This document shows positions 1,659 through 21,785 of a stretch of 25,093 nt of DNA, one piece after another. Source of the DNA: a virus (taxonomy: Duplodnaviria > Heunggongvirae > Uroviricota > Caudoviricetes); the IMG/VR virus record IMGVR_UViG_2541047854_000006. One strand, 5' to 3'. Position numbers and translations under genes: made by a program. Numbering within the stretch: the first letter of the stretch is position 1; every line of letters begins with the position of its first letter. The notes beneath the pieces were generated by a model. It worked only from the letters and a program-made list of their open reading frames with translations. It did no database searches and had not been told where the DNA came from.

Positions 1659-3788
1659 TTAAGAATCAGCCTGACTCGGGATCAGTTTTTGCCAGATAAC
1701 TGAAACGTATTTTGCCTGGTAACGGGCGTCATCAAGTGCATTATGGCGCTCACCTTCGAATGGAATAGCCGTTCTGGCATCGAAGTCTATGGCTTTCCCC
1801 AGCTCAACGATTGTGCGTACATCGCGATCGTTGTAGTAACGCCACGGGCAGGGGATCCCCTGCCGTTCGTATGAACGGCGCAAAATCGTGTTGTCGAAGT
1901 TGGCTCCATTTCCCCAAACCTGAACAAAAAATTCACCGGAGTTTTCGTCGATAAATTCTCGCAATTGTAACAGTGCATCATCTAACGGGATTTCATCGGT
2001 CATAATGGCAGATTGCGCTTCGCGTGATTGCTTAAGCCACCATTTAATGGTGTCCCGATCAATGACTCCGCCAGCAGTTTCCAGATCGATAGTCTTACTA
2101 AATTCCGGTCCCATATCTCCGGTTTGCGGATCGAAAAATATTGCACCTATTGAGATGATCGGGGCATCAGGATTTTTTCCCATGGTTTTAAGGTCGATCA
2201 TTAGATGGTCACACGTCCTGCTGGTGGATGTGATTTCGTGATGACCGTTCACCTTAATTGGGTGATCTGCCGTCTCGCCAGTTTCATTATCGCTATTGTG
2301 ATGCTGATTGCCGCCAGTGTTCTCCTTGTGTGGATGTTCAGCGCCTTCCATTTCCTCCGGATCATCTTCCTGAACTTCAACCTGATACTCTTCATCGAAT
2401 GTTTCTTGGTATGTTGCGTCGCCCATCACCGCGCCACAATCAGGGCAGTTGCCGCCGCCGGTCTGACCGCAGGCGGTGCAGACTTTTTCCACTTCCTGTT
2501 GCGCTACTGGTTCAGGCTGTTTCGTTTCTGGCTCGTTTTGTAACGCATTTGGACTGTTTTGTTCCGCTTTTTGGTAGTTCCGTTCCGATTCATGCTGGTT
2601 CTGGTTCACAGAATCGCGGGTCTGGAGCCCCTTAACCCATTTCGGATCATTCGGGTCACTAATCCCTTCAACAAATTCACCACGTGATGCAGCAAGCAAC
2701 TTATCGGCGTCAGGCTGGCTGATATTGGCTGCCTGCATAATTTTGTTTACTTCGCCAGCGGTAACTTTTATCGGCTCTGGTTGTTCTGAATCTTCAGCGG
2801 TATCTACATTTTGCGGTAAGCCCGTGTATGTGCCATTTTTTCGGGCAAAATATTCTTCTTTTGTGATTTCAGTGGCGCCAGCAGCCAGTGCCTTATCCAG
2901 ACCAGAGAGTTTGTTTGCGCGACCGTATTTTTCTCCGTCCTTATCTGCGAAGAGGAAATAGAACGGCCCCTCACGCTCTACAGATGGTTCAGCTTCCGGC
3001 GCGGTTTCATTTTTTGGGATATCAGATACCTCAGTTTCCACTGCATCAGTTTGTGTTTCTGATGACTGGAGAACATCAACAGTGCCCAGGTCTGTTTCTT
3101 CATTCTCAAACACGCCCTTTGTCGTCAGGTATTCGCAGATATATTTGTTCAGTGCTACGGGATCTTTGTGAATGTCGATCGGACGCTCACGGACAAGGCC
3201 AAAAATAGTTTGGCGGTCGTAGCGAAGGGCATCAGGCTGTTTGCGCATTGATGCCGAGATACGCTTCCAGTCTTCGCGGTCGTTGTCGATAACTTCTTTT
3301 TTTGCCCAGCGATGGATGCTGCCGTCAATGTTTCCGGCATCCACATCACTAGGCCAGAGAGCGTAGGCCAGTTCGTCATCCAGTGTTTTCCATGTCTGCT
3401 TGTATTCGCGATGAATGGCAGCAATGACCGGGCTGATTTTTCCTGTTGAATTTTCAGTGTACTGTTGATTGGCTCTGGCGCGGGCGAGATCAACAACAGA
3501 CGTGTATTTTCCGGTTTCCTTGCGTTCACCTTCGCGACGTTTTTTCCAGATGCGCATCTCTGCCTGAATTTCGGGCCATTTAGCACCAGGAATACATTTA
3601 TGCTTAACCCACCCAATGGCGTGCAACTTAAGCTCCGGATACATGGCGTTAACTTCTGGCATTTTCATCAACGCTTCAACGATATGTCCGTCGAATGTTG
3701 CCATGTCTTCCTGCAACAATTCCTGTGCGCTAATAACCATAGCGGAACTGTTTGCTGAGAACACCGTGCGGTGTGTTGATGCAAACAA
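1659..3788 (-). CDS. Exonuclease-like protein (709 aa): unknown N-terminal region, acidic low-complexity linker, C4 zinc ribbon, C-terminal DEDD-type 3'-5' exonuclease-like domain
   Basis: Long uninterrupted ORF; central acidic stretch (EEYQVEVQEDDPEEMEGAEH); CTACGQTGGGNCPDCG zinc-ribbon motif; C-terminal region with DLET (Exo I-like), and HNALDDARY (Exo III H-x4-D-like) motifs. Exact start uncertain (several Met near N-terminus). Confidence 0.7.
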   Translation of the reverse strand: MFASTHRTVFSANSSAMVISAQELLQEDMATFDGHIVEALMKMPEVNAMYPELKLHAIGWVKHKCIPGAKWPEIQAEMRIWKKRREGERKETGKYTSVVDLARARANQQYTENSTGKISPVIAAIHREYKQTWKTLDDELAYALWPSDVDAGNIDGSIHRWAKKEVIDNDREDWKRISASMRKQPDALRYDRQTIFGLVRERPIDIHKDPVALNKYICEYLTTKGVFENEETDLGTVDVLQSSETQTDAVETEVSDIPKNETAPEAEPSVEREGPFYFLFADKDGEKYGRANKLSGLDKALAAGATEITKEEYFARKNGTYTGLPQNVDTAEDSEQPEPIKVTAGEVNKIMQAANISQPDADKLLAASRGEFVEGISDPNDPKWVKGLQTRDSVNQNQHESERNYQKAEQNSPNALQNEPETKQPEPVAQQEVEKVCTACGQTGGGNCPDCGAVMGDATYQETFDEEYQVEVQEDDPEEMEGAEHPHKENTGGNQHHNSDNETGETADHPIKVNGHHEITSTSRTCDHLMIDLKTMGKNPDAPIISIGAIFFDPQTGDMGPEFSKTIDLETAGGVIDRDTIKWWLKQSREAQSAIMTDEIPLDDALLQLREFIDENSGEFFVQVWGNGANFDNTILRRSYERQGIPCPWRYYNDRDVRTIVELGKAIDFDARTAIPFEGERHNALDDARYQAKYVSVIWQKLIPSQADS

Positions 3789-3876
3789 GATTAGCCATGA
3801 CTAACATATCGGTCAAGTGATTTTGTATGCTATAGCTAACATAATTGATGTGGTAAAAGATAACTCATTGATGATG

Positions 3877-4284
3877 TTATCTTTTATTTGTCCGCTGACG
3901 GGCTTTTAGTAATTCTTCAAAGAGTTTATTGAAGTTTTTTACTCGAGCTCGCATTTCGGCGAGCTGGGTATCCTGTTCTGATTCTGGCAGTGCATTAAAC
4001 AGCTCAAGGAGCTCTAGTTCTTTGGGGGATAAGGTAACTGGCTTCTCAACAGGTGGTGTTGGTTGCTTGTCTTCATCGCCAAATAGAATCCATGTTGGTG
4101 AGCATTGCAATACTTTGCTGAGGGCAAAAAGGTTCTTCCCTGTAGGTTCACTATCACCCCGTTCCCATTGTGATACAGACACATGGGAGATTTTCAGGGC
4201 TTTAGCAAGAGACCTTTGGGTGTGTTTGAGGTTTTTCCGACGATACCTGATGCGTTCGCCGATAGTTAAATTTTTTGTTTCCAT
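3877..4284 (-). CDS. dicA: DicA, cI-like HTH repressor of the prophage immunity region
   Basis: 135-aa protein METKNLTIGERIRYRRKNLKHTQRSLAKALKISHVSVSQWERGDSEPTGKNLFALSKVL... matches my memory of E. coli DicA (XRE-family HTH); divergent from a Cro-like gene. Confidence 0.88.
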   Translation of the reverse strand: METKNLTIGERIRYRRKNLKHTQRSLAKALKISHVSVSQWERGDSEPTGKNLFALSKVLQCSPTWILFGDEDKQPTPPVEKPVTLSPKELELLELFNALPESEQDTQLAEMRARVKNFNKLFEELLKARQRTNKR

Positions 4285-4598: not shown

Positions 4599-4921
4599 AC
4601 AGGCTCGTGAGGCTCTGGATGCCTGGATATGTCGACCAGGAATGACACAGGAGCAGTGGCGATGTATACAACTCCGGCTACGGGTTATTCCCCTCTGAAC
4701 AGGCGCGTAAGGACTGGCAAAACGCCCGCAAAAAACTCTCGAGGGCAAAGGTGAAGAAACCTGCTGTGGTTGATCCGGACCTTATCTGGTCATCACCTGA
4801 CGGAGAAATACGTCGCTACGACAGTCGCCTAAACATAATCTGTCGCGAGTGCCGGAAGAGCGAAGTTATGCAGCGCATACTGGCTTTCTATCAGGGTAAT
4901 TTTCAGGACGTGGCGCAGTGA
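4582..4921 (+). pseudogene. Early-right ORF apparently split by a +1 frameshift (or two short overlapping ORFs)
   Basis: Frame 1 ATG 4582 gives 38 codons ending at TGA 4696..4698; frame 2 is open from 4646 to TGA 4919..4921 (ends in GTGA overlap with next gene). Both frames contain a similar EQAR..DW motif. Alternative: second ORF starts at GTG 4751 with GAGGG RBS. Confidence 0.3.
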
Positions 4922-5364
4922 GTGCACCGGCAACCATTCTTGATATGTGCTGTGGCAGCCGCATGTTCTGGTTCGATAAGTCTGACGAACGGGCGATATT
5001 CAGCGATATCAGAAAAGAAGGATACACATTACGCAATGGGAGACGCTTGATTATCAGCCCTGACATTATCGCAGATTTTCGTGCATTATCATTTGCAGAC
5101 GCATCTTTTTCGATGGTTGTATTAGACCCTCCGCATCTTGAGAGTGTTGGTGATAACGCCTGGATGGGAAAGAAATATGGACGGCTGAATAAAGATGCCT
5201 GGCGTGATGATTCGCGACAGAGATTTAAAGAAGCCTTTCGGGTGTTGAGGCCGCACGGCGTTCTGATTTTTTAATGGAATGAAACGCAAATACCGGTAAG
5301 CCAGATTCTGGCACTGACAGACAGAAAACCTGTTATCTGTCAACGAACAGGGAAAAAACGATAA
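4918..5364 (+). pseudogene. Methyltransferase-like ORF (DPPH motif) interrupted by in-frame TAA
   Basis: ORF 4918..5274 (LDMCCGS and VVLDPPH motifs typical of SAM-dependent DNA methyltransferases) stops at TAA 5272..5274 but the same frame continues WNETQIPVSQ... to TAA 5362..5364; the sequence across the stop (GVLIF*WNET) resembles the conserved post-DPPY region of methyltransferases. Confidence 0.45.
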
Positions 5365-5696
5365 AACCCACTGGATTATTTTTATGAAAGAGGCATCCAG
5401 TGAGTAGATTCGTAAGGCTACAGATACGTATATCTGAATAATTAAATTCAGTTCTGTAAATAAAATTTAATCCTTAACCGGATGGATTTCTGCACCCTCA
5501 GAACATCAGGAGGCCGCCCGAAAGGGCGGTAGTGAAATGCGAAAGTTCAAAATTATTATTGAAACGGGAATAGCTGGTGGAGATTTTGAGGATGTATTCG
5601 AAGTGGACGATGACGCAACACCTGAGGAAATTCATGACGGAGCATAAGAAATTTTCTTTAACTACTGCAATTACTCATACCACGAAATAAAAGACG

Positions 5697-5888
5697 ATGA
5701 GGAAGAACAAAGTGGCTGATTTTTGTTCAGCTAAATATAACATCAGTTTTGAAGAGCGGGATGAACTATTAATGGACTATGGTGAGTTACGCGGTGGAAG
5801 TGCTGCTGATGTCGAATCCTAGCGTGATGACTATGAAGCGGGAAAAACTCCGGTCGAAGCATATTGTGATGAGTGGGGCGATGAATGA
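5697..5888 (+). pseudogene. Small ORF with in-frame TAG (41 codons, TAG at 5820..5822, 21 more codons)
   Basis: ATG 5697; same frame continues through the amber codon to TGA 5886..5888 which overlaps the next ATG (ATGA). Coding status uncertain. Confidence 0.3.
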
Positions 5889-6172
5889 GCGAGATTAATT
5901 ATCAGGAAGGGCATGAAACGGCGGGGCAAGCAAAACCAGTGGCATGGCGATATCGCTACGTGAAAAAAGGCGTTACGGACTTTCAGGGGAAGTAGTGGTC
6001 TGGTGACTGGAAATATGTACCGAAAAAAGAGGATTGTAACGACAGGCCGAACTATCAAATTCAGGCCTTATTCACTGCCTCACCAGTCCCAGTTACATCA
6101 GAAGAACTGGTTAAAGCTGTGCACTTTTATGAACAACTAAAACGCGAAAATCCACCAACATCCGGCAACTAG
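5885..6172 (+). pseudogene. Small ORF with in-frame TAG (36 codons, TAG at 5993..5995, 58 more codons)
   Basis: ATG 5885 MSEINYQEGHETAGQAKPVAWRYRYVKKGVTDFQGK, amber, then WSGDWKYVPKKEDCNDRPNYQIQALF...SGN with terminal TAG 6170..6172; non-repetitive protein-like composition on both sides of the stop. Confidence 0.3.
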
Positions 6173-6426
6173 ATTAATGGATTAACTATGTCGGTTAAAC
6201 GACCAGCCAACTGAAAAAGCGGAAACCTGATTACAGGTTGCCAGATAAGGCAATGAGCTACCTGGCGCGGAACGGACTGATAAGTATGGGGAATGTTTTA
6301 CGATGAACCTTTAGACTAAAGAGTTTGTAACGCTATGTAAGTGATTTTTTCTGGTTTAGATATTTATATGTCCGGCCAAATTGAGGTGTGTTTAAATGTA
6401 ATTGCACATTGATTGTAGGAGGAATA

Positions 6427-6606
6427 ATGAAAAACGCATTGCAGTTTTTGTTTGTTGCGTTCTGGTTGTTCGCATCATGTATGCCCATCATCTTCACAGC
6501 AAGGTATATGGAAAAAGTTGATGTTTTGATATTAATATTTGGATATATAAATGCCCTTTTTTTAGGGGTGTTCATGGCGGTCATGTGCATTGAATACTGG
6601 CGGTAA
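6427..6606 (+). CDS. Small hydrophobic membrane peptide (59 aa, two predicted TM segments)
   Basis: ATG 6427 preceded by TAGGAGGA RBS; MKNALQFLFVAFWLFASCMPIIFTARYMEKVDVLILIFGYINALFLGVFMAVMCIEYWR is dominated by two hydrophobic stretches. Confidence 0.45.
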   Translation: MKNALQFLFVAFWLFASCMPIIFTARYMEKVDVLILIFGYINALFLGVFMAVMCIEYWR

Positions 6607-6799
6607 ATACAGCGAACTCCATTGGTTTAGTTGGATATTTACTGTGCTGGACAAAAACGGTTTGCGGGGAAATCTTAGTTAAGTAGAATGACTGCGGGTG
6701 CTTGAGGCTATCTGCCTCGGGCATGGACACCAACGGCAGATAGAGAAAAGCCCCAGTTAACATTACGCGTCCTGCAAGACGCTTAACATTAATCTGAGG

Positions 6800-8500
6800 C
6801 CAATTTCATGCTAGACACATGTAGGTTAGCCTCTTACGTGCCGAAAGGCACGGAGAAGCAGGCTATTGTTAACACCAAGCTGTAATGTCCCCTTTGAACC
6901 ATTCTAAAATGTCCCCAGACAATTCTCTGGGGGATTTTTCATGATCAAAGAGACTGTTACGATGAGTCATAAGGAACTCCACCGACTTCAGATTATTCAG
7001 GAACAAGCTGCGGCACGCATTGGCATTTCTATTCGGCAGGTTAAACGTCTGGTGCAACGGTATAGAAATGAAGGGCCTTCTGGTCTGGTTTCCCACCGAC
7101 GTGGAAAGCGTCCTAATAATTCCTTTTCTACTGAATTCAGAGCAACAGTAATTTCACTCCTCAAAGGCCGTTACGCTGATTTTGGACCTACGTTTGCGTG
7201 CGAAAAATTGCGCGAGATACACGGTTTATCTTTATCCGTTGAAACTCTCAGAAAGTGGATGATAGAAGAGGGGTTATGGCGTGAACGCCGTCGTAAAATT
7301 GCCCGTATATATCAACGCCGCATGCGACGACCATCTTACGGTGAACTGATCCAGATTGATGGCTCACCTCATGACTGGTTTGAAAATCGAGGCCCCAGAT
7401 GTACACTGATCGTTTTCATTGATGATGCCACCAGTGCGTTGATGGCGTTGCGTTTTGTGCCTGCTGAAACAACCCGGGCTTACATGGAAACCCTCCGGGG
7501 TTACCTTAATGATCATGGCGTACCGCTCGCTCTCTACTCTGATAGACACAGTATATTCAGGGTAAATAACCCAGAGCGGGAAGGTGAGCTGACCCAGTTC
7601 ACTCGTGCGATAAAGACACTGGGCATCGAGCCAATCCATGCCAACAGCCCGCAGGCAAAAGGGCGGGTAGAGCGCGCCAATCAGACACTACAGGACAGGC
7701 TGGTCAAAGAAATGCGGCTTCAGAATATCAGTGATATTGAAACAGCAAATGCATGGTTGCCGACCTTTATTGAAGCCTATAACAACCGGTTCGCTACGTC
7801 GCCTCGTACTACTGATAATGCTCATCTTGATGTGCACCATTCTGAAGAGGAACTGGGTTATATCTTCAGCCTACAGGCGAAGCGCGTTCTGTCTAAAAAT
7901 CTCACTTTCCAGTACAAAAGCAGTGCGTTTCAGGTACGCAGTGAGGGCCGGGGATATCGACTTAGGCATTCGGTTGTTACTGTATGCGAGAACTTTGACG
8001 GTGAAATTAACGTTCTGTATGACGGGAAAGCGCTGGGCTGGGAAAAGTATGTTGATGGCCCGGAGCCTATACCACTGGATGATGAAAAGAGTGTCCATGA
8101 ACGAGTGGATAATGCCCGTATTGATTTACGCTCAAAATACTATGTTAAACCTAAAGCTGACCATCCCTGGCTTACGCGCCGAACGCAAAGTCATCAGCAA
8201 GTTAAGCCCCCGAAGTTACCTAAAAAGAAGCCTGATCCCGATAAAAAAGATTGAAACCAAGATCGATTCGGTTGAGTGCATATCCATTCATAGGGTAGAT
8301 TCTTAAGTCGCGTTTCTGGTGTTCATTTTCGGGTGGTTTGTTACTTGTTTTACCGGGGATATGCCAGAAACGCGCTGAGTCAGTCTGGGCGGTGCGCGTA
8401 ATGAGGCGTTATGGTAAATAGCCTATGCTAATGTCCGCTAAGAGCAAGAAGCGGAAGTTGGCAGTTTTGTGGACTGTCCCCACAAAAGTGACTACAGAAA
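6800..8500 (+). mobile_element. Insertion sequence-like element carrying a DDE transposase (boundaries approximate)
   Basis: Single transposase ORF interrupting prophage gene order between early-right remnants and flxA; terminal inverted repeats could not be defined by eye, so ends are estimates. Confidence 0.4.
6941..8254 (+). CDS. DDE transposase with N-terminal HTH and integrase-core (rve) domain, IS481/ISNCY-like
   Basis: 437-aa ORF; N-terminal HTH-like region (AAARIGISIRQVKRLVQRY); catalytic-core motifs LIQIDGSPHDW (D), LYSDRHSIF (D), GRVERANQTLQDRL (E); lysine/proline-rich C-terminal tail. Confidence 0.85.
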   Translation: MIKETVTMSHKELHRLQIIQEQAAARIGISIRQVKRLVQRYRNEGPSGLVSHRRGKRPNNSFSTEFRATVISLLKGRYADFGPTFACEKLREIHGLSLSVETLRKWMIEEGLWRERRRKIARIYQRRMRRPSYGELIQIDGSPHDWFENRGPRCTLIVFIDDATSALMALRFVPAETTRAYMETLRGYLNDHGVPLALYSDRHSIFRVNNPEREGELTQFTRAIKTLGIEPIHANSPQAKGRVERANQTLQDRLVKEMRLQNISDIETANAWLPTFIEAYNNRFATSPRTTDNAHLDVHHSEEELGYIFSLQAKRVLSKNLTFQYKSSAFQVRSEGRGYRLRHSVVTVCENFDGEINVLYDGKALGWEKYVDGPEPIPLDDEKSVHERVDNARIDLRSKYYVKPKADHPWLTRRTQSHQQVKPPKLPKKKPDPDKKD

Positions 8501-8649
8501 TAGTTGCAATTCATAATTGATCATGGGTTGTCAGTTAAACTCGTGGCGATTTAAATAGACTAATTGGGAGTGCGTCCATTACTTATATCTTGTAATGTTA
8601 ACTATCAGAAATGATACAAAGATAATATGTCTTTAAAGAAAAGGCTGAT

Positions 8650-8676
8650 GGCGAAAAGTGGCCCGATGAGGGCCAC
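8650..8676 (-). terminator. Rho-independent terminator downstream of flxA
   Basis: Minus-strand hairpin GTGGCCC-TCATC-GGGCCAC (plus coordinates 8658..8676) followed by TTTTCGCC. Confidence 0.5.
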
Positions 8677-8690
8677 AATACGGCTGTCAC

Positions 8691-9023
8691 TTAGACGTAA
8701 ATATCAATGGTGCCAGCGGTATTTGTATCGTCTTTTTTCTCTTCTTTTTTATCAGGCTGAACTGTCGCGTCTTCATTCTTTTTCTCTGCCTGCTGCCTTA
8801 ACAACTGCTCCAGTTGAGCCCAGAGGCTTTCAATTTGCTTCTGTACCAATGCAGCCATTTCTTTTTTCTGCTGTGTCGTCATCCCCTCTTCCGATGAGAT
8901 TTTCCCAAGCTTTTCAGTCAGCACCTGAATTTGTCTTGTGATTTTGGCTATTTCTGATGTTCCTTCCGGGGCGGAGTTGTTTGAAATAACGGTTGAGGTA
9001 TTTCCCTGAATTGTGACAGACAT
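8691..9023 (-). CDS. flxA: FlxA, sigma-28 (FliA)-dependent prophage protein
   Basis: 110-aa protein MSVTIQGNTSTVISNNSAPEGTSEIAKITRQIQVLTEKLGK... matches remembered FlxA; sigma-28 promoter found upstream. Confidence 0.85.
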   Translation of the reverse strand: MSVTIQGNTSTVISNNSAPEGTSEIAKITRQIQVLTEKLGKISSEEGMTTQQKKEMAALVQKQIESLWAQLEQLLRQQAEKKNEDATVQPDKKEEKKDDTNTAGTIDIYV

Positions 9024-9046
9024 AGATTTCTCCTTTTAAAAAAGCA

Positions 9047-9073
9047 CTATCGGCATGCACAAAAAAATCTTTA
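9047..9073 (-). promoter_or_regulatory. Sigma-28 (FliA) class promoter for flxA
   Basis: Minus-strand sequence TAAAGATT-N11-GCCGATAG (reverse complement of plus 9047..9073) versus consensus TAAAGTTT-N11-GCCGATAA; about 25 nt upstream of the flxA ATG. Confidence 0.7.
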
Positions 9074-9225
9074 ATCGTATTTCTTGTGTCATTAATTGTT
9101 TGATGTTCAGATTGTTTTCCTCGCGGGCTGGCGCGCCTCAGAAAGTAAAGCTTGTTGACAGGGGTAAACGTTCGGCAATAATTTTCTGCCGCATGCGGGT
9201 GTTGCATAAAACGTGTTACGTTCCT

Positions 9226-9531
9226 TTATCGACAGGTCAGGTCACCGCTCACCCGCCGACGAGAAAGCAACACTGACATGCTAAAGCAAAAAATAGATGA
9301 ATAAGTTGAGTTGTGCATATGTAGCCTGACCGTCACAAAGTATATGGTGTCTGTACCAGTAAGATGATGGCCGGACTCTTTAAAAACGAGCTGACCTGCA
9401 CAATACAGGATGGACTTAGCAATGGCTGCTCCTGGCACAAAGCGGACAGTGATCACCGTTCTTACGACTACTTTCTGACTTCCTTCGTGACTTGCCCTAA
9501 GCATGTTGTAGTGCGATACTTGTAATGACAT
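9226..9531 (-). CDS. Hypothetical 101-aa ORF between flxA and relB (position and length of Qin ydfV)
   Basis: ORF from six-frame track; length and location agree with my memory of a 101-aa annotated gene here in K-12, but the sequence is not obviously protein-like and overlaps the relBE operator. Confidence 0.3.
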   Translation of the reverse strand: MSLQVSHYNMLRASHEGSQKVVVRTVITVRFVPGAAIAKSILYCAGQLVFKESGHHLTGTDTIYFVTVRLHMHNSTYSSIFCFSMSVLLSRRRVSGDLTCR

Positions 9532-9544
9532 TTGTAATTACAAG
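9519..9544 (+). promoter_or_regulatory. relBE operator (relO-like inverted repeat) in the relB promoter
   Basis: CTTGTAAT-N10-ATTACAAG perfect 8-bp inverted arms immediately upstream of the relB RBS (AAGAGGTG) and ATG 9556. Confidence 0.65.
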
Positions 9545-9555
9545 AGGTGTAAGAC

Positions 9556-9795
9556 ATGGGTAGCATTAACCTGCGTATTGACGATGAACTTAAAGCGCGT
9601 TCTTACGCCGCGCTTGAAAAAATGGGTGTAACTCCTTCTGAAGCGCTTCGTCTCATGCTCGAGTATATCGCTGACAATGAACGCTTGCCGTTCAAACAGA
9701 CACTCCTGAGTGATGAAGATGCTGAACTTGTGGAGATAGTGAAAGAACGGCTTCGTAATCCTAAGCCAGTACGTGTGACGCTGGATGAACTCTGA
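9556..9795 (+). CDS. relB: RelB antitoxin
   Basis: 79-aa protein MGSINLRIDDELKARSYAALEKMGVTPSEALRLMLEYIADNERLPFKQTLLSDEDAELVEIVKERLRNPKPVRVTLDEL, matches remembered RelB. Confidence 0.92.
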   Translation: MGSINLRIDDELKARSYAALEKMGVTPSEALRLMLEYIADNERLPFKQTLLSDEDAELVEIVKERLRNPKPVRVTLDEL

Positions 9796-10082
9796 TGGCG
9801 TATTTTCTGGATTTTGACGAGCGGGCACTAAAGGAATGGCGAAAGCTGGGCTCGACGGTACGTGAACAGTTGAAAAAGAAGCTGGTTGAAGTACTTGAGT
9901 CACCCCGGATTGAAGCAAACAAGCTCCGTGGTATGCCTGATTGTTACAAGATTAAGCTCCGGTCTTCAGGCTATCGCCTTGTATACCAGGTTATAGACGA
10001 GAAAGTTGTCGTTTTCGTGATTTCTGTTGGGAAAAGAGAACGCTCGGAAGTATATAGCGAGGCGGTCAAACGCATTCTCTGA
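9795..10082 (+). CDS. relE: RelE mRNA interferase toxin
   Basis: 95-aa protein MAYFLDFDERALKEWRKLGSTVREQLKKKLVEVLESPRIEANKLRGMPDCYKIKLRSSGYRLVYQVIDEKVVVFVISVGKRERSEVY..., start overlaps relB stop. Confidence 0.92.
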   Translation: MAYFLDFDERALKEWRKLGSTVREQLKKKLVEVLESPRIEANKLRGMPDCYKIKLRSSGYRLVYQVIDEKVVVFVISVGKRERSEVYSEAVKRIL

Positions 10083-10153
10083 ACCAAAGCATGACATCTC
10101 TGTTTCGCACCGAAGGTGACACTTCTGCTTTGCGTTGACAGGAGAAGCAGGCT

Positions 10154-10309
10154 ATGAAGCAGCAAAAGGCGATGTTAATCGCCCTGATCGTCATCTGTTT
10201 AACCGTCATAGTGACGGCACTGGTAACGAGGAAAGACCTCTGCGAGGTACGAATCCGAACCGGCCAGACGGAGGTCGCTGTCTTCACAGCTTACGAACCT
10301 GAGGAGTAA
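10154..10309 (+). CDS. hokD: HokD (RelF), Hok-family small membrane toxin
   Basis: 51-codon ORF not in the track (below size cut-off): MKQQKAMLIALIVICLTVIVTALVTRKDLCEVRIRTGQTEVAVFTAYEPEE; third gene of relBEF operon. Confidence 0.85.
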   Translation: MKQQKAMLIALIVICLTVIVTALVTRKDLCEVRIRTGQTEVAVFTAYEPEE

Positions 10310-11387: not shown

Positions 11388-11687
11388 AAAAATTCCTTAA
11401 TACTGATAACTTGGCGCACTATACACACGTTCCTGAAGAAAGCTATAGTTTTTTGATGGGGTTGAAGATGGCTGGATGTCTAAAATAAACATTGCTTCAT
11501 ATGTTCAACTATGCGTTAATGATTGCGTCGGTTTGAAGAACAGACGATATACGAAGTAGTTTACTAAAGCAGTTCTCATTTCAGGTGTTATTCACTTATT
11601 CCTTCTTTGAGTCTCTCCAATTAAGTACGAAGTCGTTTCTGTTATGCAAACCATTTATGCCGAAAGGCTCAAGTTAAGGAATGTAGA

Positions 11688-11903
11688 ATGTCAAATAAAA
11701 TGACTGGTTTAGTAAAATGGTTTAACGCTGATAAAGGTTTCGGCTTTATTTCTCCTGTTGATGGTAGTAAAGATGTGTTTGTGCATTTTTCTGCGATTCA
11801 GAATGATAATTATCGAACCTTATTTGAAGGTCAAAAGGTTACCTTCTCTATAGAGAGTGGTGCTAAAGGTCCTGCAGCAGCAAATGTCATCATTACTGAT
11901 TAA
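11688..11903 (+). CDS. cspB: Cold-shock protein CspB
   Basis: 71-aa protein [71 protein letters not shown]; long AT-rich 5' leader typical of cold-shock genes. Confidence 0.9.
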
Positions 11904-12185
11904 AATTCATCGCTCGTCTGTATACGATAACGAAGAAGGCTGATGCCTGAGTAGAGATACGGACAGAGTAGTGAATATTGGATCTCTTTAATAAAAAGTA
12001 AGGAGGTCCAATACATGAAACAATGGCTAGCATATTTGGCAAAATCTTAATCAGGAAAAGTATGCTAACCATTGTGGTGAAGTGCAGGTTTGCTGCATGA
12101 ATAGTTTTACAGCAGAAGCTAACTGCTGGCATGGCAAAACAAAGTGCGTAAGTGGATGACTCCCACAAAAAGCACCACAATCTCA

Positions 12186-14212: not shown

Positions 14213-14574
14213 GGTAATATTAAATCGGAACATTTACATCGCGGAATGTAAAATTTAAATAAAAAGGACTCTTCCATGAGCCAAAATTCCTGAAATCTTA
14301 AGGGTAAGATAAAAGGTCTTAATCAGAATGACACGTTTTATTAATAAATAAAGCTATTCTTTCATTGCTGTGTTTTTCTTTACAAAAGTAATCCTTGCTA
14401 TGGGTGGTTAATCATGCGTTAATGGTGTTCTGGTTTGTTACAAATTTATCTGAAGCAGTCATTGTTATAATTTTATTATTTGTACCTCTTGAGATTTCCT
14501 TGTTGGTTTTTCTCTCTGATATTTTTTTTCGGACCATTCTGCCCAAGGGCTAATTTCTTCAAAAGGTAATAATT

Positions 14575-14787
14575 ATGTCTAACAAAATGACTGGTTTAGT
14601 GAAATGGTTTAACCCTGAAAAAGGTTTTGGTTTCATCACGCCGAAAGATGGCAGCAAAGATGTGTTTGTCCATTTCTCAGCAATTCAGAGCAACGATTTC
14701 AAAACATTAACTGAGAATCAGGAAGTTGAATTTGGTATTGAGAACGGACCTAAAGGTCCTGCCGCTGTTCATGTAGTGGCGCTTTGA
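14575..14787 (+). CDS. cspI: Cold-shock protein CspI
   Basis: 70-aa protein [70 protein letters not shown]; preceded by about 350 bp AT-rich leader. Confidence 0.9.
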
Positions 14788-14993
14788 GGTAGACAATATT
14801 ACAAACCATATTCACTTTAGATGCCCGTGTTGTCATGGTTCCCAGTATAGAACATCATCTTTTGATGTTTCTGACATGAATCCTTTCGGGGCAAAATGTA
14901 TCTTTTGTAAATCAATGATGATTACATTTGATAATATTTCACAATACTTAAATGCCAGCCGTCTGTCGTTGGATTTAAAAAAGTGAAAATGAA

Positions 14994-21210: not shown

Positions 21211-21785
21211 TGGCATTCAGAATGAGTGAACAACCACGGACCATAAAAATTTATAATCTGCTGGCCGGAACTAATGAATTTATTGGTGAAGGTGATGCAT
21301 ATATTCCGCCTCATACAGGTCTGCCAGCAAACAGTACCGATATTGCACCGCCAGATATTCCGGCTGGCTTCGTGGCTGTTTTCAACAGTGATGAGTCATC
21401 GTGGCATCTCGTTGAAGATCATCGGGGTAAAACGGTTTATGACGTGGCTTCCGGCGACGCGTTATTTATTTCTGAACTCGGTCCGTTACCGGAAAATGTT
21501 ACCTGGTTATCGCCGGAAGGGGAGTTTCAGAAGTGGAACGGCACAGCCTGGGTGAAGGATACGGAAGCAGAAAAACTGTTCCGGATCCGGGAGGCGGAAG
21601 AAACAAAAAACAACCTGATGCAGGTAGCCAGTGAGCATATTGCGCCGCTTCAGGATGCTGCAGATCTGGAAATTGCAACGGAGGAAGAAATCTCGTTGCT
21701 GGAAGCATGGAAAAAGTATCGGGTATTGCTGAACCGTGTTGATACGTCAACTGCACAGGATATTGAATGGCCAGCACTGCCGTAG
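21210..21785 (+). CDS. Tail fiber assembly protein (Tfa family)
   Basis: 191-aa ORF starting in TAATG overlap with the fibre gene; [51 protein letters not shown]... typical of lambda Tfa / P2 G chaperones. Confidence 0.85.

Follow-up and report, generated by a model that had tools for sequence, protein, structure and literature searches.

Is the open reading frame (ORF) of 59 codons at positions 6427-6606 of this prophage a gene and, if so, what might its product do to the host cell? The window, i.e., the whole stretch of DNA analyzed here (25,093 nucleotides; IMG/VR record IMGVR_UViG_2541047854_000006), is a Qin-type cryptic lambdoid prophage of E. coli. An original prediction, made without database searches, had singled out this ORF as the source of a small hydrophobic peptide and had guessed that such a peptide could be a toxin, a lysis protein, or a kil-type protein.

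Prophage Setting and Existing Annotation

In near-identical prophages of ATCC 8739 and other strains, the gene order is dicA, dicC, early genes, two pseudogenes, and the remnant of an ISNCY transposase, followed by ydfW, flxA, ydfV, relBE, hokD, and rem. The early region around the ORF had been called decayed, and correctly so, since RefSeq flags two pseudogenes just upstream of the ORF in the identical sequence of other strains. Compared with ATCC 8739, the window is without about 1.6 kb after dicC (at about 4654-4656), a segment that holds a YdaT-family gene, a replication-like gene, and part of a DUF977 gene. On the other side, at about 10497, the window jumps to ydfT/Q-like sequence, and rem and ydfU of K-12 are missing. 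Two cspA-type thermoregulator leaders and a match to the IS009 sRNA, all at the Rfam gathering score, occur at 11527-11919, 14429-14814, and 21553-21751; they fit the late region of Qin, which is rich in cold-shock genes.

The ORF had also been placed next to an IS element. An element is indeed close by, but the wording is imprecise, as the transposase ORF begins at 6941 and the leader of a hok/sok locus (6696-6866) intervenes. The transposase ORF itself (6941-8254) encodes a protein of 437 aa of the ISNCY family with HTH and rve domains, and the corresponding ISNCY CDS is marked by RefSeq as C-terminally incomplete in other strains.

Of 5426 complete E. coli genomes, 1585 contain the 401-bp region around the ORF (6300-6700) at an identity of at least 95%. 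The region was found, too, in three phage genomes deposited for E. coli, each with an intact ORF. The Qin-type ORF sits in the early-right ('nin-like') string of genes, upstream of hok/sok. K-12 MG1655 lacks the part of the window from 4657 to 8069, ORF included, and this absence accounts for the lack of any experimental record of the 59-aa protein. Besides the 59-aa ORF, this segment comprises a methyltransferase gene, the two pseudogenes, the hok leader, and the greater part of the transposase; in the Qin prophage of K-12, dicC/ydfX directly adjoins ydfW. The 59-aa peptide string was found neither in the searchable literature nor among the small genes of the Sakai Ribo-seq supplements. RefSeq/PGAP leaves the ORF unannotated in the records inspected, and some GenBank submissions label it 'hypothetical protein' or 'membrane protein'. 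The coordinates of the features discussed in the following sections are collected in Table 1.

Table 1. Features of the locus and of its paralog (positions refer to the window unless another locus is named)
Feature	Position	Strand	Basis or remark
AT-rich untranslated spacer, conserved together with the ORF	6307-6416	+	divergence of alleles L127/L135; partly alignable with the paralog
Shine-Dalgarno AGGAGG	6417-6422	+	read from the sequence; perfect match
ORF with TAA, predicted two-helix inner-membrane hairpin, Qin-type subfamily	6427-6606	+	ORF list, paralog, dN/dS
Predicted helix 1 (residues 2-26, core about 4-24)	6430-6504	+	AlphaFold2, hydropathy, invariant columns
Predicted helix 2 (residues 31-58, core about 33-55)	6517-6600	+	AlphaFold2, hydropathy, invariant columns
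T7 run within the ORF (codons 44-46)	6557-6563	+	onset of frameshifted database variants
hokD coding sequence	10154-10309		after the insertion
Paralog ORF	L208 5001-5180 (E. coli CP042246.1); L257 about 3701-3880 (ATCC 11775)

The Reading Frame, Its Start Signals, and Chance Expectation

Both the sequence and the ORF list give a plus-strand frame that opens at ATG 6427-6429 and closes at TAA 6604-6606, and its 59 codons translate as MKNALQFLFVAFWLFASCMPIIFTARYMEKVDVLILIFGYINALFLGVFMAVMCIEYWR. With a GRAVY of +1.27, the product is as hydrophobic as had been claimed. By hydropathy, the hydrophobic residues fall into two stretches (about 4-24 and 33-55), with the polar turn RYMEKVD between them. 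The consensus-like Shine-Dalgarno (SD) sequence reported ahead of the frame was also found, as a perfect AGGAGG separated from the ATG by 4 nt (aata), a spacing that is short, yet inside the functional range. The motif varies among copies: the substitution A6420G, which turns it into AGGGGG, is carried by 64 of 185 alleles, and the paralog described in the next section has AGGGA placed 6 nt ahead of its own ATG.

T-rich DNA is prone to yield hydrophobic frames, and the openness of this one might be accidental, in non-coding prophage DNA that is rich in T and was shared recently. Chance expectation was estimated with 5000 dinucleotide-preserving shuffles of 6140-6695. An ATG ORF of at least 59 aa was present in 32% of them, a result that speaks for accident and by which the length of the ORF alone becomes uninformative. 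The start signal points the other way: not one of the 5000 shuffles gave an ORF of at least 59 aa that was preceded, at a distance of 4-10 nt, by a perfect AGGAGG, nor did any give such an ORF that combined at least 5/6 matches to the SD with a GRAVY of at least 1. A further argument against accident is that the composition of the frame varies with codon position: T accounts for 37/52/24% of positions 1/2/3, a bias with p = 0.015 (chi-square).

A Diverged Paralog at the Rac Attachment Site

A word-indexed protein search retrieved near-identical proteins together with frameshifted and truncated variants, and nothing more distant. An exhaustive HMMER search over 1.84 billion representatives recovered a second subfamily, P0079, whose common form, P0084, is MRKILMYLCISIWIVISCVPIILTSEYLTEASIMALMFGHANALCIGVFISIIYIECWR. 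P0084 is 59 aa long and 41% identical to the window protein from end to end (residues 1-59) in a gapless alignment, and P0079/P0084 occur on more than 1000 contigs. The locus is a prophage remnant of 2.3 kb at the Rac attachment site, with ttcA on one side and uspF/ompN on the other. There the gene has an integrase fragment, a DUF1627 fragment, and a permease pseudogene as neighbors, and it is the sole intact frame of at least 59 aa in the remnant. This paralog is present in 1045 of the 5426 complete genomes; it carries no annotation in any of the 30 genomes (30/30) among the matches listed.

At the DNA level, the Qin-type ORF and the paralog are 59% identical with zero indels over 180 nt, and the two flanks of the alignment are partly alignable with indels of 1-4 nt. 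The 73 differences are distributed over the three codon positions as 25/17/31, with pN 0.34, pS 0.72, and a dN/dS of about 0.19 by the Nei-Gojobori method, the lowest among the six frames. Moreover, the 59-codon frame is the only one open in both loci, the others being stopped in one or both. When the 73 differences were scattered at random, the start, the stop, and the open frame survived together in 0.4% of cases (P = 0.004), and 18 +/- 2.5 residues remained identical, versus 24 observed (p = 0.015). The alignment also places an in-frame TAA 15 nt ahead of the paralog ATG, which indicates that the conserved start is the ATG of the 59-aa frame and not the GTG at 6388 that would give 72 aa.

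An accidental ORF is hard to reconcile with a frame, start, stop, and length that are kept at 59% DNA identity with indels confined to the flanks, with the P of 0.004 for survival of the frame under random substitution, or with a dN/dS that is lowest in this very frame. There are two diverged lineages only, so the deep comparison is that of one diverged pair, and as such it provides good evidence for what was formerly a protein-coding gene and probably still is one. Taken with the frame kept intact in most Qin-type copies, it supports the original prediction in its main part, namely a real gene for a small membrane peptide with two (predicted) transmembrane segments, and we regard 6427-6606 as probably a real membrane-protein gene. 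A frame that homologous regions failed to keep had been named as a reason to drop that prediction; the frame proved to be conserved both in about 98% of the Qin-type copies and in the gapless alignment with the paralog.

The same comparison bears on the opposite strand, where an 85-aa ORF (6333-6590, minus strand) could be taken for the real gene. It is annotated in two of the three phage records ('hypothetical protein', 'hornerin'), and the third bears the same label. Against it, this frame is interrupted by two stop codons in the paralog, it has a dN/dS close to 1 (0.54/0.66), no SD precedes its ATG, no family matches it, and its product is polar and of low-complexity composition. It is scarcely credible as the gene of this locus, and the phage records probably annotate 6333-6590 on the wrong strand.

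Variation among Qin-Type Copies

Recent variation was followed in about 200 IMG/VR loci that contain the first 33 nt of the ORF, some contigs having been fetched twice. All 59 codons are intact in about 98% of these loci; the copies are at least 97% identical to each other, and their intactness is for this reason weak evidence. The ORF has nine polymorphic sites in this set, all non-synonymous (A16V, M28I, V31I, I37M, Y40H, A43V, L44I, V48G, and M53T), with a density of 9/180 as against 22/230 in the flanks. In the paralog set, the ORF DNA is identical in 17 of 20 copies, and three rare polymorphic sites, again all non-synonymous, compare with 15 in 400 nt of flank. Pooling both subfamilies gives 12/360 polymorphic sites in the ORF and 37/630 in the flanks.

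The 12 polymorphic sites within the subfamilies are thus non-synonymous without exception (12/12), where neutrality expects about 80% (P about 0.07). Recent polymorphism shows no sign of current codon-level purifying selection and matches the neutral prediction, a fact that counts in favor of an accidental ORF. So does the observation that the non-coding flanks 6301-6410 and 6607-6695 are conserved as well as the ORF among Qin-type alleles, as does the fact that automated RefSeq annotation skipped the frame in the records inspected. Set against the divergence pattern of the paralog and the perfect SD, these points leave an ORF opened by accident as an unlikely explanation of the locus.

In the diverged alleles L127/L135, the sequence upstream of about 6300 differs by 27% and the interval 6301-6410 by just 2.7%; the upstream (pseudo)gene ends with a TGA at 6304-6306. 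Just past that stop codon lies a 13-bp palindrome, CTTTAGaCTAAAG (6309-6321), whose outermost pair is polymorphic among Qin-type alleles. At the aligned place the paralog reads CTTCAGtCTGAAG, with a compensatory change. The palindrome could be a protein-binding site or a product of chance.

Disrupted forms of the ORF were also found. The database variants P0019, P0021, P0022, P0024, and P0025 diverge at the T7 run and continue as frameshifted 55-aa forms that end in ...GGVHGGHVH; among the IMG/VR loci a shift at this run was seen in just 1 of 207 (L162). Many of these variants may be sequencing errors, as most come from read-archive assemblies. Variants P0026-P0035 are truncated within the ORF at several different points, showing that the region was repeatedly disrupted. 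Since several variants are frameshifted or truncated by IS elements or deletions, the gene is dispensable.

Two further loci deserve mention. In L152 (IMG/VR 2537561977_000021), an IS3-family element lies about 14 nt past the stop of the ORF and replaces the hok locus; this junction was considered as a mosaic module boundary and rejected, being an IS3-family insertion. L087, which looks like a copy of 53% identity, shows deletions of single bases in its T runs and was set aside as probably a low-quality assembly.

The Neighboring hok/sok Locus

About 90 nt after the stop codon of the ORF, at 6696, starts a match to Rfam RF01794 (6696-6867, 104 bits), which corresponds to the 5' leader of the hok mRNA. 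In the window this leader ends at AUU in place of the AUG of hok, and in phage vB_EcoS-640R1 the same leader continues into an intact mok/hok. What interrupts it here is a 3.27-kb insertion (6867-10139) that carries the transposase remnant, ydfW, flxA, ydfV, and relBE. On either side of the insertion stands one copy of a direct repeat of 15 bp, GGAGAAGCAGGCTAT (6852-6866 and 10141-10155), and the hokD coding sequence follows the insertion. Where a locus extends far enough downstream to tell, the hok junction is intact in 120 cases and the insertion is present in 66. The recognizable toxin locus of this region is therefore the neighboring, split hok/sok, which the original prediction missed. 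The insertion of IS and relBE looks like the origin of the leaderless hokD that stands beside relBE, hokD being, as we presume, devoid of its leader elements.

This closeness raises the question of whether the conserved block, instead of encoding a protein, belongs to the upstream regulatory DNA of hok/sok or specifies an RNA. Two facts favor such a role: the hok leader begins about 90 nt after the ORF in every undisrupted Qin-type copy, and the spacer from the ORF to the leader is conserved. Four others oppose it. No hok/sok leader lies within 2.4 kb of the paralog, the RF01794 match starts only at 6696, the divergence between the subfamilies has the codon-position pattern of coding DNA, and neither strand folds better than shuffled sequence (z = -1.66 and -0.17 for 6307-6640). 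A regulatory or RNA function of the block is accordingly very unlikely, and the missing leader near the paralog shows the 59-aa ORF to be a gene separate from hok. Over 6427-6606, Rfam gave nothing except a sub-threshold match on the minus strand (18.9 bits, against a gathering score of 59).

Expression Signals

The ORF and the early-right genes are co-directional. Allele L127, which is undecayed, has three early genes that abut one another (60, 58, and 171 aa), then a 120-nt AT-rich spacer, the ORF, and mok/hok. A simple scan of 6000-7000 found no sigma-70 consensus promoter on either strand, and neither a promoter nor a terminator of its own flanks the ORF in the window or, consistently, in the paralog. 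Given the shared direction and the lack of a detectable promoter, the most economical reading is that the ORF would be expressed from the early transcript on derepression, most likely the rightward one, once the DicA-type repressor is lifted. The SD and the AUG are predicted to be unpaired, in a loop of the local minimum-free-energy fold, and the consensus SD should allow efficient translation.

Predicted Protein Anatomy

The topology suggested for the peptide agrees with hydropathy, which gives the two hydrophobic stretches described above, and with AlphaFold2, which from an alignment of eight sequences produced a helical hairpin with helices at residues 2-26 and 31-58 (mean pLDDT 70.7). Across the eight sequences of this alignment (A3), 19 columns are invariant. 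They include W13, S17, C18, P20, I21, I22, and T24 in helix 1, L36, F38, G39, N42, A43, and L44 in helix 2, and the C-terminal E56, W58, and R59, and they group on helix faces. On helix 2, G39-xxx-A43-xxx-G47 would form a face of small residues; G47 is kept in all database variants but one (P0086). A Foldseek comparison of the model with viral structures returned generic hairpins only, the best with E = 1.4.

K or RK stands at the N-terminus; the turn has no net charge in the Qin type and is acidic in the Rac-site type. This charge pattern fits the positive-inside rule and so favors an N-in/C-in hairpin. The 59-residue product, if translated, would insert in the inner membrane as a two-helix hairpin, most likely with both termini in the cytoplasm and the acidic or neutral turn of 4-8 residues in the periplasm. 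Conserved polar and small residues inside the helices suggest specific packing, which may be self-association or docking on a larger membrane protein of the host, the latter being the mode of action of small membrane proteins that have been characterized; the residues that could serve either purpose are S17, C18, P20, and T24 in helix 1 and G39, N42, A43, and G47 in helix 2.

Family Limits

The window protein had no match in Pfam (E up to 0.1 and 10), PHROGs, NCBIfam, or PADLOC, and a PDB profile search with the family had none either. Searching a 5.8-billion-protein index with the two-subfamily profile gave nothing beyond the two subfamilies, and a metagenome scan gave no further relatives. 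When a single genome of each species was scanned, with the Qin-type sequence as the sole query, three loci were found, in E. coli/Shigella. In phage and plasmid sequences, tblastn retrieved the same two types only, one of the matches being on a Klebsiella oxytoca 'plasmid' record. The family, made up of two subfamilies, was thus found to be confined almost entirely to sequences of E. coli and Shigella.

One apparent relative was discarded. The paralog scores 13.9 and 14.5 bits against DUF4212/TIGR03647, the small subunit of a sodium:solute symporter, where the respective cut-offs are 30 and 26.05; the window protein has no score, and no symporter gene is adjacent. The likeness was rejected as a compositional match between two-helix proteins.

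This is a new orphan family, ordinary in kind, among the small membrane proteins of prophages. The predicted protein fits the descriptive class of small bacterial membrane proteins in its size (59 aa), its GRAVY of 1.27, its two predicted helices, and a frame conserved in the paralog. With reasonable confidence, 6427-6606 can be taken for a genuine gene whose product is a 59-residue, two-helix hairpin of the inner membrane that belongs to this orphan family of E. coli and Shigella.

Possible Functions and the Toxin Hypothesis

The candidate roles of such a protein could be modulation of the host membrane in the lytic cycle, exclusion, or toxicity. Regarding the last, the protein would belong to the membrane toxins (kil, lysis, or type I) and be silenced in the lysogen by the repressor; once made, it would oligomerize via the G39-A43-G47/N42 face and then depolarize or permeabilize the inner membrane. 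Small hairpins with a glycine-zipper-like face can form pores, and the two hydrophobic helices of this small protein, its glycine-zipper-like face, and its conserved intramembrane Asn agree with the idea. So do the strong, accessible SD, which would render any transcript productive, and the location amid the toxin modules hok/sok and relBE in the accessory region of the prophage. The Qin/Rac genes DicB, YdfD, and KilR, which are of similar size, are toxic upon expression. For DicB, the toxicity is stated in 10.1101/2023.04.14.536235.

Other observations weigh against toxicity. The protein resembles neither Hok/Gef nor GhoT/OrtT, holins, or any toxin or defense model, and simple scans revealed none of the marks of type I toxins, be it a promoter on the antisense strand, an sRNA, or a 5' leader with structure. 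It has no charged C-terminal tail and is encoded outside the lysis cassette, which makes it unlike a holin, and the paralog persists in a remnant without a partner gene. Furthermore, many small hydrophobic membrane proteins are harmless, acting as non-toxic regulators of larger membrane proteins. Size and hydrophobicity apart, the guess of a toxin, lysis, or kil function has no backing, homology included, and we consider it doubtful.

A more specific and rather improbable proposal is that the 59-aa protein is a membrane partner or immunity factor that modulates the Hok pores, or else a repressor-silenced toxin or exclusion protein of a new family; if true, this would bring a further component to a classic type I toxin system, or a new 'kil' class of prophage proteins. 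The fixed place of the gene beside hok/sok in inducible lambdoid phages offers a concrete functional hypothesis of this kind; otherwise, it is one more accessory prophage gene.

Comparison with Known Systems

Hok/Gef invites comparison as a small hydrophobic prophage peptide, and the ORF physically adjoins the hok leader. The two differ in architecture, as Hok has one helix, a periplasmic Cys tail, and the mok/sok/fbi RNA, whereas the ORF encodes two predicted helices. The Hok_Gef profile (PF01848) does not match the 59-aa protein, and no mok/sok/tac-fbi RNA architecture was found around its ORF, the RF01794 match lying only after it.

GhoT, the type V toxin (57 aa, PF10753), shares with the 59-aa protein its size, the predicted two-helix hairpin, and the occurrence in horizontally acquired E. 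coli DNA. However, the ORF has no sequence relationship to GhoT and no adjacent GhoS-like antitoxin gene. Pfam gave no match to GhoT_OrtT (PF10753) at E up to 10, and kinship was rejected at an hhalign probability of 0.25% against a GhoT sequence.

The class II holins, or pinholins (S21, about 70 aa, two transmembrane domains), are similar in the number of helices, in size, and in their lambdoid origin. In contrast to them, the ORF lies upstream of Q in the early region, outside the lysis cassette: in the intact phage L004, flanked by early genes and hok, it precedes the start of Q by about 2.3 kb, and in the window it stands between the dicC-side genes and flxA/relBE. Its product ends with the four residues E56-Y-W-R59 and not with a charged tail. 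There is no dual-start motif of the Met-Lys-Met type, the next Met after M1 being M19, and the holin families of Pfam and PHROGs do not match the protein.

The closest parallel in kind is found among the uncharacterized small membrane proteins of E. coli and its prophages, a general class with AcrZ, MgtS, MgrB, and YohP as examples. If the ORF is translated, it joins the real small genes that pipelines overlook, and E. coli has a family of small membrane proteins with no RefSeq annotation in any record inspected. As a general class, these proteins have been reviewed (PMC12648545). The 59-aa protein resembles them in having no more than about 60 residues, nearly all of them predicted to be transmembrane, in having been missed by pipelines, and in its polar and small intrahelical residues, and it differs from most of the characterized members, which have one helix and are encoded by core genes of the chromosome, in having two predicted helices and a prophage-borne gene.
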